Source: Escherichia coli (GTDB lineage: Bacteria; Pseudomonadota; Gammaproteobacteria; Enterobacterales; Enterobacteriaceae). Taken from it: DNA of 64,000 nt. Under the pieces are notes generated by a model. The model worked only from the letters and a program-made list of their open reading frames with translations, was not told where the DNA came from and did no database searches. How positions within the stretch are numbered: the first letter of the stretch is position 1; each line of letters opens with the position of its first letter. The DNA lies in the NCBI RefSeq assembly GCF_051903065.1, contig NZ_CP178438.1; one strand, given 5' to 3'. The translations under genes were made by a program, and so were the position numbers. Positions 5,155-57,999 of the stretch are shown here, one piece after another.

Positions 5155-5560
<406 letters not shown>

Positions 5561-52169: not shown

Positions 52170-54869
52170 TCAATCAACCTTGCCAATCAATCCTTCCGTA
52201 GCCGAATACCCGCAGCTTTCGTCATCGGTGACTAAAATCACGTTTGCCATCTCCGGATCTTGCCGTTGTTCAATGCACCACTGCCTGAACGCTTCCCCTT
52301 CCAGTAAAGAAAATTCATCCCGATGTTTTTTCCACCAGCTTCGACGCACTCTGGCAACGCTCATTTCCCATGCGTGAGCACCGCTGGCATAAGGCTTCAC
52401 CACACCGTCAATACAGGTAGCCAGCCACAGGGAAACAGACTCTTCAGCCAGACGTGTCGACAGCTTTTCCGGGAGGTAATCGTTGATATTGGCGGCATAG
52501 CCGGGCCTGAAGTTCAGCATAAACTTTTTAGCCATTGCGCGATCGCAGTAATATTTGCCCACTTGCTCCTGCTCGCTGCGGGCAAATCCTTCCGGCATTA
52601 CCACGTCCTCACCGTAGACGGATTCAATAAGAAGCCGGGCTGCGTGTGGCATCTGAATAGCGCCTTGCTCACGCAATACTCGCTGCGTCAGCCAGATTCG
52701 CCCATGATCGGGGTAGACATATGCGCTGTTACGCATCGCACTACCAAACCATTCGTCACCCGGAGAGTCGTCCCAGACGGGGGCCAGAATCAGCAATTCA
52801 GGAGGGGAACGCTCGTCTTTTCCATCACGTTTTAACTGACCATTAATATCACGAATATGCCGTTGTAATCGCCCCGCTCGCTGGATCAGCAAATCAATGG
52901 GGGCCAGGTCGGAGATCATTTCGTCCAGGTCAATATCCACACTTTGCTCAATTACTTGTGTACAAACAATGACTTGAGATGATCTTTTTAAACTACAATT
53001 TTTACCAAAGCGTGCCAGCGTTTCCGTTTCAATTCGCTGGCGATCGCTAAAAGCAAAGCGGCTATGAAAAAGTGAAAGGCTGGAAGCAGGAATGACGCCG
53101 CGGGCAAGTAACTGACGATAAACCTTAATAGCGTCATCGACAGAATTCCGGATCCAGGCGATGCATTTCCCCTGACTTACCGCTGATTCGATACGCGCAA
53201 TACATTCTTGTTCGCTATGAAGCCAACCCACGCTCACGCTACGCTCAACGTCTTTGCGCGTCGCTACCCGGTGCGAATGCACATCGGATTTCGTGACATG
53301 CGTCAGCCAGGGGTAATCATCCTTTTCTAGGAACGGAGCTTCTTGCTGGCCCTCTGTGCCACGCGCAAAGGCGGCGACAAGTTTGTCGCGCTGCTGTTGA
53401 GATAACGTAGCAGAAAGCAAAATGACGCTGTTTCCGCCACGCACCTGTCGCTCAATCAACCCTTCAAGAATGTACGACATGTAAGCGTCACAGGCGTGGA
53501 TCTCATCAGCCAGCAGGATTTTGTTACTCAACCCCAGAAGCCGCAGATTATTATGTTTAAACGGCATCACTGCCATCATCGCCTGATCCAGCGTGCCGAC
53601 GCCAATTTCAGCCAGTAAAGCCTTCTTGTTACTGTCGGCAAACCAGGCTGCACATCCTTGACTGAACGCTTGTTCATCCGGTTCTTCTGACCCGACTAAA
53701 TCACCGGACCAGAGTGATTCATTAAAGCGTTCCATTAATGTACGGGCGCTGTGTGCCAGCACCAGGCTGGGGCGGGATTCTGGCGAAAAGAAAGCAAGCC
53801 AGGTTTTGACCAGCCGATCGTACATGGCATTGGCCGTTGCCATTGTTGGCAGGCCAAAAAACAAACCCTGAGCTTTATTCTCAGCCATCAACCTGTGCGC
53901 CAGGATAAGCGCCGCTTCTGTTTTACCTGCGCCAGTCACATCTTCCAGAATAAATAACTGTGGCCCTGGCTGGCTGATATCCAGATCCAGTACCTTTTGC
54001 TGTAATGGTGTCGGGTGCTCAATAAAAGGAAACAGCGTATTAATTCCGGTGAAAGGTGCGGTTTCTGCTTTTGGAGGAAAGACGGTTAAGGCGTTTTGAG
54101 CCTGAACTAAAGTTTTCTGCCAGTAATCTTTAATATTCATTGTCTGTGCGACGCGTGGAAAAAATCGCGTTGACGAACCCGTCCAGTCTGCGAGTACGAC
54201 TGTTGCAGAGATATACCAGGAAAGTTGTTTTAAAAGTTCAACGCCCTCGTCATCATCCCAGAATGTGGGAATCTCTATGAGCGGAAACAGTGACTTGATT
54301 TCAAGGAGAAAATCTCGTGCGGCAGCTTTGTCTTCAGGCAGGAAATTATCCAGTTCATCAATACGGTCAGGGGGCCGACCATGATGCCCGGTAGTCATGG
54401 GCATCCACATCGCTATTACACGTTTAAGTTTGCGAGTAGAGAGTGAAGAGGCAGGAAGCAATTCTTCGCATTCACTTAAATAATGATGCCACAACCAGTA
54501 GCCCAGCGTTGAATGAGAGATCTTTTCGTAATTCTTTCTTGCGCCTTCCGGAACCTTGAGTTGTGGGTGCAGGTAAAGTTGCTGAAATGAGCGGGCAAAT
54601 TTTCCAATATCGTGCCAGCACAACAACCAGGCGAAAAATTGAGCCGCCTGTTCCTTGTCAGAAATCCCTAATTGACGAAAATAATCAGCCAGCCCGAAGC
54701 AATTTCTTTTAACCATTAAATAGCCCATCGCGGCCACATCCAGCGAATGCCAGCAAAGAAGGTGATAGTCGTCACCCCCTTCTTTCTCGTCGCGTCGGGT
54801 TTTTCCCCAGAAATCAAAGAAAGTCACAATATTTTTATCCTTCAGTAAACTTAAAGGATATTTACGCAT
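52170..54869 (-). CDS. cas3: Cas3 HD nuclease / SF2 helicase (type I-E)
   Basis: 899 aa; N-terminal HD motifs (LLCWHSLDV, WHDIGKF), helicase Walker A GAGKTEAAL and DEIHA box; highly AT-rich upstream region. Confidence 0.92.
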   Translation of the reverse strand: MRKYPLSLLKDKNIVTFFDFWGKTRRDEKEGGDDYHLLCWHSLDVAAMGYLMVKRNCFGLADYFRQLGISDKEQAAQFFAWLLCWHDIGKFARSFQQLYLHPQLKVPEGARKNYEKISHSTLGYWLWHHYLSECEELLPASSLSTRKLKRVIAMWMPMTTGHHGRPPDRIDELDNFLPEDKAAARDFLLEIKSLFPLIEIPTFWDDDEGVELLKQLSWYISATVVLADWTGSSTRFFPRVAQTMNIKDYWQKTLVQAQNALTVFPPKAETAPFTGINTLFPFIEHPTPLQQKVLDLDISQPGPQLFILEDVTGAGKTEAALILAHRLMAENKAQGLFFGLPTMATANAMYDRLVKTWLAFFSPESRPSLVLAHSARTLMERFNESLWSGDLVGSEEPDEQAFSQGCAAWFADSNKKALLAEIGVGTLDQAMMAVMPFKHNNLRLLGLSNKILLADEIHACDAYMSYILEGLIERQVRGGNSVILLSATLSQQQRDKLVAAFARGTEGQQEAPFLEKDDYPWLTHVTKSDVHSHRVATRKDVERSVSVGWLHSEQECIARIESAVSQGKCIAWIRNSVDDAIKVYRQLLARGVIPASSLSLFHSRFAFSDRQRIETETLARFGKNCSLKRSSQVIVCTQVIEQSVDIDLDEMISDLAPIDLLIQRAGRLQRHIRDINGQLKRDGKDERSPPELLILAPVWDDSPGDEWFGSAMRNSAYVYPDHGRIWLTQRVLREQGAIQMPHAARLLIESVYGEDVVMPEGFARSEQEQVGKYYCDRAMAKKFMLNFRPGYAANINDYLPEKLSTRLAEESVSLWLATCIDGVVKPYASGAHAWEMSVARVRRSWWKKHRDEFSLLEGEAFRQWCIEQRQDPEMANVILVTDDESCGYSATEGLIGKVD

Positions 54870-55061
54870 ATTTTAAAAATTATCTGTGATATATATCAGC
54901 CAATAAAACATTTATATTGTGAATAAATTTATGATTTTCATTTGAAATTCATAATAATAAATAGAGACAATATATTCACATAAAAAATATAAATTTAAAA
55001 AAGGGTGCAGGAGACCAAACCATCACAATTCAATACGCGGGGTTTTACCCCCGCGTGGTGG

Positions 55062-55214
55062 CTACTTCTTCGATTCGTAAGCGAGAACAGCCTTAAACTC
55101 CATACCACGTTCTCTGATACTCAACTCACACAACGAGTCACCTACCATCAGCGTGAATCCCAGTACTGTACAACACAGTACGATGATTGCCACAAGGGCA
55201 TATTTTGTCAGCAT
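55062..55214 (-). CDS. Hok/Gef-family type I toxin (50 aa), HokE-like
   Basis: Not in ORF track (too short). ATG 55214 after GGGAGG; translation [50 protein letters not shown] with the Hok signature SLCE..R.G.E..A.LAYES.K; stem-loop GCGGGGGTAAAACCCCGC just downstream (55036-55055). Confidence 0.7.
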
Positions 55215-55478
55215 GTCTTGCCTCCCTGCAAAGAAGAGACTAACATTCGAATTGCTTAGGTTCGAACGCTGGCCTCAGGTTGATAGAAATATCGCCTGGG
55301 GCTTTTGTCCATCTGGAACCTCGCGAATGCTTAACGCCAGACAGCCTCAAGCACCCAACACCATTCTATACCTGTTAATTCTTCCAGCGGCGTTCACGTT
55401 TAAAATCAGGAATGCTGCTCGCAAAATAAAAACGCCCCCATCATTTCTGACAGAGGCGTTTAATTTATCCGGCAATAT

Positions 55479-56213
55479 TTACCCTTCGTGTAACCCACAT
55501 TCCCTTTTTAAGCCAAAGAAACGCGTTTCTTCTTCAGCCATGCCGGGTTCCCATTTACGGGTTGTATGGGTATCACCAACCGATAAATATCCTTCATCCC
55601 ATAATGGGTGATATTTAAGGCCATGTTTTTGCAGGTACTGATAAATAGTTCGGTTATCCCAGTCGATAATCGGCAGCACTTTAAATACGCCACGCTGAAT
55701 TGCCAGCACCGGTAAATTGGCGCGGCTGCCGGATTGTTCGCGGCGCAGGCCAGCAAACCACGTTTGCGCGTTAAGTTCTTTCAGCGCCCGGTTCATCGGT
55801 TCGACTTTGTTGATGTCATTGTACTTTTCAATGCCTTCAACGCCCTGTTCCCACAGTTTTCCGTAGCGTGCTTCCTGCCAGGCTGCGCTTTCGGTAGCAC
55901 GGTACACTTTCAGGTTGAGCTTGAGTTTGTCCGTTAACTCGTCAATAAAGCGGTAGGTTTCCGGGAACAAGTAACCGGTATCGGTGAGGATCACTGGAAT
56001 ATCCGGGCGAATCTGATTCACCAGATGCAGGCTCACCGCCGCCTGAATGCCGAAGCTGGAAGAAAGCACATATTCACCGGGCAGATTATCCAGCGCCCAG
56101 GCTACGCGGCCTTCAGCGTCCAGTTTTTCCAGTTGGGCGTTAGTTTCTGCCAGCGCCAGAATGCGATCTACCTTCGGCAGTTCGTTCAGGGCGTTTAGAT
56201 CGAGTTTGGGCAT
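55479..56213 (-). CDS. cysH: Phosphoadenosine phosphosulfate (PAPS) reductase
   Basis: ORF 55479..56366; start at [14 protein letters not shown] (ATG 56213, 244 aa); C-terminal ECGLH motif. Confidence 0.93.
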
Positions 56214-56234
56214 AGATTCCTCACTGTTTGCCTT

Positions 56235-56272
56235 GCCTGATGCGACGCTCACGCGTCTTATCAGGCCTACAA
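56235..56272. repeat. REP element between cysI and cysH
   Basis: GCCTGATGCGACGCTCACGCGTCTTATCAGGCCTACAAG. Confidence 0.7.
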
Positions 56273-56286
56273 GACCGGGCTGATGG

Positions 56287-57999
56287 TTAATCCCACAAAT
56301 CGCGCGCCGGATCGAGCACCGGGCGAATGATGCCCGCACGCACCGTAAAGTCGCCGAAGCCTTCACCCGCTTCGCGCTCTTTCGCCCAGCGCCCTATCAG
56401 TTCATCAAGCGACGCCAGGATTTCCGGCTCGGTGATGTTTTCTTTATACATCCGTGGGATACGTGTCCCAATACGGTTGCCGCCAAGATGCAGGTTGTAG
56501 CGACCCGGCGCTTTACCCACCAGGCCCACTTCCGCCAGCATCGCGCGACCACAACCGTTCGGGCAGCCTGTTACACGCATCACGATATGCTCATCGCTAA
56601 CACCATGTTTCGCCATTAAATTATCGATGTTGTCGATAAAAGACGGTAGGAAACGCTCCGCTTCCGCCATCGCCAGCGGGCAAGTCGGGAACGAGACGCA
56701 GGCCATTGAGTTTTCACGCTGCGGCGTGACGGCATTCATTAACCCGCTCTCTTTGGCGATCTTCTCGATCTTCGCTTTCTCGCTTTCCGGCACACCGGCG
56801 ATGATCAGATTCTGGTTCGCCGTAATGCGGAAATCACCTTTGTGGATCTTCGCGATCTCCAGCAGGCCGGTTTTCAGCGGACGCCCCGGATAATCAAGGA
56901 TGCGACCATTTTCGATAAACAGCGTCAGGTGCCAGTTATCATCAATGCCCTTAACCCAGCCAATACGATCTCCGCGTCCGGTGAACTCATACGGACGGAT
57001 CGGTTCAAATTTGATCCCCGCGCGACGCTCCACTTCCGCTTTAAACGTCTCAACCCCCACGCGCTCCAGCGTGTATTTGGTTTTGGCATTTTTACGATCG
57101 GTTCGGTTACCCCAGTCACGCTGAGTTGTCACGACGGCTTCCGCCACCGCTAGCGTATGCTCTAGCGGCAGATAGCCAAACTCACTCGCGGTGCGGGCGT
57201 AGGTTTTCTTGTTGCCGTGTTCGATGGAAAGCCCACCGCCCACCAACAGGTTAAAGCCCACCAGCTTGCCGTTTTCGGCGATCGCCACGAAGTTCATGTC
57301 GTTGGCGTGCAGATCGATATCGTTCTGTGGCGGGATCACTACCGTGGTTTTGAATTTACGCGGCAGGTAGGTCTGGCCGAGGATCGGTTCTTCATCAGTG
57401 GTGGCGACTTTTTCCTGATCGAGCCAGATCTCCGCATACGCGCGGGTACGCGGCAGCAGATGTTCAGAGATTTTCTTCGCCCATTCATACGCTTCCGCGT
57501 GTAGCTGCGACTCGTAAGGGTTCGAGGTGCAGAGTACGTTACGGTTCATGTCGTTAGCGGTCGCCAGCGCATCAAGACCAACCGAGTGCAGCATCTGGTG
57601 CACCGGTTTGACGTTCTTTTTCAGAATGCCGTGGAACTGAAACGTCTGGCGGTTGGTCAGGCGAATGCTGCCATAGATGGTGTTTTCACCGGCAAATTTG
57701 TCTATCGCCTGCCACTGTTTAGTGGTAATCACCCCACCCGGCAGACGGCAGCGCAACAGCATCGCGTGGCGCGGCTCCAGCTTCTGTTCAGCACGTTCGG
57801 CGCGGATGTCGCGGTCATCCTGCTGATACATGCCGTGGAAGCGGATCAGCAGGAAGTTGTCGCCCTTAAAGCCGCCGGTCAGACCGTCGTTTAAATCTTC
57901 CGCAATGGTGCCGCGCAGGTAGTTGCTTTCAAGCTTCATGCGCTCGGCGTCTGTCAGTTTTCCTTCGACCACTAAAGGCCCTGGATGTTTTTCGCTCAT
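56287..57999 (-). CDS. cysI: Sulfite reductase hemoprotein subunit
   Basis: 570 aa; siroheme/Fe-S motifs CPNGCGR and CVSFPTC. Confidence 0.95.

Follow-up and report, generated by a model that had tools for sequence, protein, structure and literature searches.

The short intergenic region between cas3 and cysH in E. coli raises the question of whether the small ORF that it harbours is a genuine toxin gene with its own antisense regulator, and what, if anything, such a module has to do with the CRISPR-Cas genes next door. The region was analysed within a 64,000-nucleotide stretch of E. coli DNA (hereafter the window), in which it corresponds exactly to positions 54870-55478 (609 bp), bounded by the cas3 ATG at 54869 and the cysH stop codon at 55479. 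The small ORF is a real and intact Hok-family gene accompanied by an antisense Sok RNA, and together they are the known hokX (HokG)/sokX locus. We put the probability at about 0.9 that the window carries the complete chromosomal form of this type I toxin-antitoxin system (hokX, or HokG in Swiss-Prot, with sokX), a sister of hokE/sokE with a mechanism like that of the R1 system.

The identity of the locus follows from existing annotation. The window region is 100% identical to that of E. coli strain 23CRST027, where RefSeq places the ORF between a type I-E cas3 of the non-K-12 variant and cysH and names it 'Hok/Gef family protein' (WP_000956458.1); the accession recurs in the annotation of O157:H7 and of further strains. 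The exact 50-aa sequence occurs on at least 1000 contigs in a large protein collection, and one source name in its cluster is that of the Swiss-Prot entry 'Putative protein HokG' (HOKG_ECO57). The upstream boundary of the module is marked by the cysH intrinsic terminator (55430-55461, minus strand), which a terminator scan describes as a 14-pair stem followed by a T-run. Two sub-threshold Rfam matches at 55421-55521, ctRNA_p42d (24.9 bits against a threshold of 50) and Spot_42 (19.7 against 80), reflect the shape of this terminator and do not represent separate RNAs. In the mechanical ORF list, cysH itself spans 55479-56366 and starts at a GTG (295 aa), compared with 244 aa (735 bp) in RefSeq; the excess length is an artefact, because ORFs are listed from the first possible start codon.

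The toxin CDS occupies 55062-55214 on the minus strand, as judged from the ORF list, Pfam, protein alignment and RefSeq. A sequence-only reading of this DNA had proposed a 50-aa ORF with a strong ribosome-binding site, a Hok/Gef signature and a close resemblance to HokE. These points are borne out. By sequence reading, a Shine-Dalgarno motif, GGGAGG (55221-55226, minus strand), lies 6 nt upstream of the ATG, and the frame is intact and covers the whole Pfam HOK_GEF model (PF01848, model positions 1-42 of 42, E 6.3e-10). In alignments the peptide is 78% identical to K-12 HokE, with lower identities to HokA (48%), HokC (37%), R1 Hok (34%) and HokB (33%). When six Hok proteins are aligned (the ORF, HokA, HokB, HokC, HokE and R1 Hok), residues C14, T16, L28, E30, E39 and A45 do not vary, a cysteine at position 29 is common to all of them except HokB, and the peptide has the Hok/Gef layout, hydrophobic in its N-terminal segment and polar in its C-terminal tail. 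An in-frame N-terminal extension can be dismissed, as the stretch from the preceding in-frame stop codon to the hok ATG contains no possible start (ATG, GTG or TTG).

An ORF of merely 50 codons could in principle be a chance open frame in intergenic DNA, with no gene behind it, and the NCBIfam HokA and Hok-family models do score below their curated cut-offs (53 vs 89 and 39.5 vs 73, with E-values of 2.6e-14 and 3.6e-10, respectively), so that family membership rests on Pfam, alignment and Rfam. The full-length Pfam match and the 78% identity to HokE speak against a fortuitous frame, as do the 111.7-bit Rfam match to the flanking leader and the pattern of variation, which is skewed towards synonymous sites. 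Among seven alleles of the hok CDS, a small sample, there are nine synonymous variable sites and one non-synonymous site, and this ratio argues that the peptide is under purifying selection. Taken together, a chance origin of the frame is extremely improbable.

The RNA context of the gene is equally well defined. The hok mRNA leader, a stretch of 158 nt, matches Rfam family RF01794 on the minus strand at 55199-55356 over the full model (1-157), with 111.7 bits against a gathering threshold of 59 (E 3e-26), and in a scan of the whole 64-kb window this is the only family to reach its gathering threshold; a match to IsrM (12.4 bits vs 376) is noise. RF01794, described as 'sok antitoxin', matches the sense strand of the hok mRNA, its consensus beginning at the mRNA 5' end and ending in the AUG. 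Annotation based on RF01794 will thus assign sok the wrong strand and the wrong length (157 nt instead of 59 nt), and the K-12 sokX sits on the opposite strand.

The full-length hok mRNA is predicted to be 360 nt long (54997-55356, minus strand), running from GGGUGCUUGAGG to the U-run that follows the 3' fold-back element described below. Its 5' end was placed by the start of the Rfam model and by homology to the 5' ends of hokB, hokC, hokE and R1 hok, and its 3' end at the point where homology between strains with the cas-E1 genes and strains lacking cas genes stops. A putative -10 element, TAGAAT (55363-55368, minus strand), is read from the sequence 6 nt before the presumed start site, with no good -35 element; its position is conserved in eight aligned loci. 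Both this promoter and that of sok escaped a consensus promoter scan with a cut-off of 9 of 12 positions, and the two were placed, as inferred elements, by homology and sequence reading. The hok promoter of R1 is weak, and a weak hok promoter would fit here as well.

On the plus strand, the sequence-only reading had expected an antisense Sok RNA of approximately 60 nt somewhere around 55230-55330. The sokX RNA of K-12 (b4701) maps to 55254-55312, well within this range, and defines a 59-nt Sok with a 5' tail, a terminator-like hairpin and a U-tract. Only two of the 59 positions differ between the window and K-12, and the core (GGTTGATAGAAATATC...GGGGC) is shared with sokE, sokC and sokB. The predicted Sok fold has a free energy of -22.7 kcal/mol (z = -3.6). 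Its putative promoter (55218-55246, plus strand) consists of TTGCCT (55218-55223) and TAACAT (55241-55246) separated by 17 bp, ends 7 nt before the Sok start and agrees with the consensus at 8 of 12 positions; the -35 box overlaps the hok Shine-Dalgarno motif on the opposite strand.

The sequence-only reading had placed sokX at this site in K-12, possibly with no functional hok, and this is correct: NC_000913.3 annotates the ncRNA sokX (b4701) between cas3 and cysH. From the cysH stop codon to the hok ATG, K-12 and the window align gaplessly with six substitutions, and homology breaks off right after the ATG. What K-12 retains is thus the promoter, the leader and sokX; the hok coding sequence is gone. 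In K-12 (positions 5220-5312 of the compared locus, L003; window equivalent 55212 and below), the cas3 ATG lies on the same strand about 90 nt past the end of homology, so that what remains of hok, its promoter and the leader with the overlapping sokX, points straight into cas3.

A hallmark of hok mRNAs is the communication between their ends, and the window transcript is predicted to engage in it. The sequence-only reading had named RNA folding as a way of checking the assignment, and the folds are in agreement with it: the predicted 360-nt mRNA reaches -130.6 kcal/mol in its minimum free energy (MFE) structure, with z = -4.21 relative to shuffled sequences, and closure of the 5' end with the 3' end is predicted. 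The tac element, nt 1-14 of the mRNA (GGGUGCUUGAGGCU; 55343-55356, minus strand), pairs in both the full-length MFE and centroid folds with a predicted fold-back inhibition (fbi) element at 55003-55016 on the same strand, which comprises GGUCUC (55011-55016) and GCACCC (55003-55008) and is followed by six U residues (54997-55002). The predicted interaction amounts to 12 bp, in which nt 1-6 and 9-14 pair with nt 349-354 and 341-346: GGGUGC pairs with GCACCC and GAGGCU with GGUCUC. RNAduplex assigns -21.8 kcal/mol to the pairing of fbi with the mRNA 5' end. Comparison between alleles indicates that the pairing is kept where the sequence changes, since GUACCC in the O157 allele yields a G-U pair and GGCCUC in the L012 allele a G-C pair. 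Equivalent complementarity between the 5' and 3' ends, different in sequence, is found in hokB and R1-type hok.

A GC-rich hairpin (55035-55056, minus strand) follows the hok reading frame and is present in every predicted fold. Its 55036-55055 stem-loop (ACGCGGGG/CCCCGCGU, 8 bp) had been read as standing at the expected position of the fold-back element; the stem-loop is real, but the fbi element is situated roughly 30-50 nt beyond it in the 3' direction, at 55003-55016. In R1 hok mRNA, 3' trimming stops at the GC hairpin just 3' of hok, and the hairpin at 55035-55056 should be the corresponding stop of 3' exonucleolytic trimming, as expected from the analogy. Immediately beyond it, a dcb-like box (UUGAAUUGU; 55025-55033, minus strand) is predicted to pair with nt 102-110 of the mRNA (55247-55255) in the full-length MFE and centroid folds, and this pairing would sequester the region of the Sok target and the AUG in the full-length transcript. 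When the mRNA is truncated in silico back to the GC hairpin, at nt 322-326, both the tac-fbi pairing and that between 55025-55033 and 55247-55255 are lost, and the 5' end adopts a local hairpin. The same truncated folds form a predicted Sok-target hairpin (GAGGCCAGCGUUCGAA-loop-UUCGAAUGUUAGUCUC; 55236-55276, minus strand), which likewise appears in the Rfam consensus and whose loop and upper stem are the polymorphic part of the locus.

The 3' hairpin has also been a target of insertion. E. coli B carries an IS186/IS421 element within the GC hairpin 3' of hokX (about 2500-2525 of the BL21-AI locus, L013; window equivalent about 55040), and the BL21 junction, GGGG..CCC followed by ATAAGCGCTAACTTAAGGG, matches the IS186 junctions in K-12 hokC (L005) and hokE (L004). 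Three paralogous hok loci have thus been struck at the same hairpin, each losing its fbi end.

The arrangement is best explained by a canonical hok/sok-type type I toxin-antitoxin module, whose mechanism is drawn here by homology with R1 hok/sok; the transcript ends, the processing, the action of Sok and the toxicity are all inferred on this basis. Transcription from a weak promoter would yield a stable hok transcript, about 360 nt long (55356 to 54997), whose 5' end (tac, 55343-55356) would pair with its 3' end (fbi, 55003-55016), while the box just 3' of the GC hairpin would pair with the region around the Sok target. By virtue of these two pairings, the full-length mRNA would be closed to ribosomes and to Sok alike. 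Slow 3' exonucleolytic trimming to the GC hairpin (55035-55056) would strip off both boxes, upon which the 5' end would refold locally and the target hairpin (55236-55276) would form. The processed RNA would then either be bound by the unstable 59-nt Sok (55254-55312, plus strand) and destroyed, or be translated into the 50-aa Hok, presumably a single-pass inner-membrane peptide that collapses the membrane potential. Against this, Pedersen and Gerdes (1999) reportedly saw no stabilisation of plasmids by chromosomal hok loci that were intact.

The least canonical part of the locus concerns mok. The intergenic region up to the cysH terminator had been thought to leave room for a mok frame and an antisense Sok; the Sok could be mapped, but the mok-like frame turns out to be interrupted by a TAA. 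Alignment with the known hok loci, another check that had been proposed, likewise gave a mixed answer: tac-fbi complementarity is present as in hokB and R1, but a search for an AUG at the canonical mok position, about 10 nt after GAGG (here 55273-55276) as in R1, hokB and hokC, found none. Instead, three-frame translation reveals a mok-like frame (55256-55312, minus strand) that starts with an AUG at 55312, is preceded by GAGG with 6-nt spacing and runs for 18 codons before it ends at TAA (55258-55256). The frame is open in the K-12, L012 and BL21 alleles, where its 36 codons end at a TGA overlapping the hok start (AUGCUGA), an arrangement classic for coupling; an independent TAG together with a 1-nt deletion interrupts it in the O157-type allele. 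The equivalent upstream frame of hokE is open and in frame with hok. A second candidate, a 12-codon ORF at 55208-55246 (minus strand) with no obvious Shine-Dalgarno motif, has a TGA stop that overlaps hok codons 2-3 (AUGCUGA). It is found in all seven hok-bearing loci compared, with TAA as the stop in O157, and is possibly an ORF for translational coupling.

The stop-bearing alleles are common. Counted as exact matches to leader alleles of roughly 80 nt (79 nt for the window) in 5426 complete E. coli genomes, the window allele with its TAA is found in 572 genomes and the O157-type allele (TAG, 1-nt deletion) in 1008; the open alleles account for 2289 (BL21 type) and 811 genomes (K-12/L012 type). 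The two independent stop alleles are located at the same codon, and the site lies in the loop of the Sok-target hairpin (55256-55262). The variable positions of the mok-like frame fall in the loop and upper stem of this hairpin and coincide with the 5' tail of Sok.

The interruption of the mok-like frame means that Hok translation in the window may be weaker than in other strains, or may depend on the 12-codon ORF that overlaps the hok AUG. As both upstream frames are candidates for mok, an intact hok frame is not by itself proof of a translatable toxin. One could go further and regard the locus as a translationally silent relic, in which the hok frame is intact, the toxin is not made on account of the stop in the mok-like frame, and the gene is kept by linkage or for a role of the RNA alone. 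The TAA at 55258-55256 does cut a frame that in other strains reaches the hok AUG, the two independent stop alleles are frequent (572 and 1008 genomes), strains of the K-12 type retain the leader and sokX after losing the hok CDS, and in E. coli B the 3' hairpin is interrupted by an IS. Yet the peptide appears to be under purifying selection (nine synonymous vs one non-synonymous site), the identical protein is encoded by alleles with and without the stop, and the tac-fbi pairing, the hok Shine-Dalgarno motif and the 12-codon ORF are kept in all alleles examined; moreover, the frame starting at 55312 is only a candidate for a functional mok. On balance, a silent relic appears unlikely, albeit worth keeping in mind, and a complete type I toxin-antitoxin locus remains the preferred reading.

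The distribution of the locus speaks to its relationship with CRISPR-Cas. The hok CDS and 3' UTR (54997-55214) are present in 4215 of the 5426 complete E. coli genomes at a minimum of 90% identity and 80% coverage, and the segment with the leader and Sok in about 5395. hokX occurs alongside cas-E1 genes (the window and loci L009-L011) as well as in strains devoid of cas genes, where the order is iap-hok-cysH; in E. coli B (BL21), which retains hokX, the stretch from iap to hok contains no more than an IS and a CRISPR remnant; and hokX is absent exactly where the K-12 cas-E2 variant sits. The occurrence of hokX with cas-E1, with a cas remnant or with no cas genes at all implies that cas genes have been lost or swapped regardless of hok. 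Between the U-run of hok and the cas3 ATG lies a very AT-rich spacer of 127 bp (54870-54996), which is limited to cas-E1 strains, as homology with strains lacking cas genes stops at the U-run. A promoter-like sequence (CTGATA-18-TAAAAT) ends directly before the cas3 ATG.

Published surveys are in keeping with this picture. Almendros et al. (2014, PMC3903273) list a 'hok sok system' as one defining element of CRISPR-I arrangements and state that only strains with the K-12 (E2) cas variant lack it. An extra hok gene in the cysH-iap region has been described as a homologue of E. coli B hokX (PMC7232551). Among 237 uropathogenic strains, hok and sokX adjoin cysH in 90%, and the remainder have sokX alone, like K-12 (PMC12736100). 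The homologous Rfam region of EHEC EDL933 has been tabulated with RNA-seq and Ribo-seq counts (PMC5331693). A literature search for the original description of hokX or HokG returned secondary mentions only, the primary source of the name not being located, and the search found no experiment on hokX toxicity or regulation.

The adjacency to cas3 had invited the suggestion that the toxin-antitoxin pair contributes to the maintenance of the CRISPR-Cas locus, whether by addiction, by preventing deletion or through regulation that would maintain or control the neighbouring type I-E system. What favours such a role is adjacency only, hok preceding cas3 by 127 bp in the same orientation, along with the K-12 relic, whose hok promoter and leader are directed into cas3. 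The distribution argues otherwise, as hokX is tied to cysH rather than to cas: it is found in cas-less iap-hok-cysH strains, persists in E. coli B despite the IS and the CRISPR remnant, and is missing from strains with the K-12 cas-E2 variant. Furthermore, the closing helix and the U6 tract that follows it divide the hok mRNA from cas3. We consider a maintenance or control function highly improbable, and the suggestion finds no support in the comparison. Another kind of coupling to the neighbouring defence locus is conceivable, whereby hok mRNA read-through or processing together with SokX modulates cas3 expression, or whereby the toxin serves as an abortive-infection back-up; this, too, seems very unlikely, as no observation points to either version. 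If the back-up function were nevertheless true, the ease with which the toxin fires would be tuned by the stop alleles that recur in the mok-like frame.

The complete hokX/sokX module is best viewed as ordinary, since the locus is known and about 78% of complete E. coli genomes carry it. The sequence-only reading had considered an intact toxin frame at this site to be notable; with the CDS and 3' UTR in 4215 of 5426 genomes, a RefSeq annotation, a name (HokG) and published accounts (PMC3903273, PMC7232551, PMC12736100), it is not. Overall, that reading was right about Hok, Sok and the comparison with K-12, and wrong in its placement of fbi, its estimate of notability and its link to CRISPR. 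As a discovery, the locus carries little weight: it is already known, being annotated, named, surveyed and common in E. coli. Its value lies elsewhere. The RNA elements of hokX/sokX can be placed precisely, and the upstream coupling frame proves to be polymorphic for premature stops across E. coli, which cautions against equating an intact hok frame with a functional toxin by default.

Comparison with known systems places the locus more firmly. R1 hok/sok (parB), the paradigm of type I toxin-antitoxin systems, resides on a plasmid, whereas hokX is chromosomal, but the order of parts from the 5' tac to the 3' fbi is the same in both: tac, the Sok target, an antisense Sok whose -35 box lies over the hok Shine-Dalgarno motif, Hok, the GC hairpin and fbi. 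The two Hok peptides share only 34% identity, and the tac/fbi pairs differ (GGGUGC/GCACCC in hokX vs GGCGCUU/AAGCGCC in R1), even though both are complementary. In hokX nothing corresponds to the mok AUG that R1 has 10 nt after GAGG.

The closest paralogue is hokE/sokE of K-12, which resembles hokX in its leader architecture and in the Sok core. Neither hokE nor hokX has an AUG at the canonical mok position, and both have instead an upstream AUG frame that reaches the hok start, except for the stops in the window and O157 alleles. The hokE frame is in frame with hok, whereas that of hokX is out of frame and its stop overlaps the hok AUG. Moreover, hokE occupies a different chromosomal site (ybdK-entD), and the K-12 copy is cut by IS186 in its 3' hairpin.

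The locus itself is the same as that represented by E. coli B hokX, K-12 MG1655 sokX (b4701) and HOKG_ECO57, with the same cysH-adjoining site and the same protein as in the HokG cluster. The window allele is one of the two common alleles with a stop in the mok-like frame. In K-12 everything 3' of the hok ATG is missing, and in E. coli B an IS186/IS421 in the 3' hairpin removes fbi, whereas the window sequence is uninterrupted and represents the locus in its complete, ancestral form.
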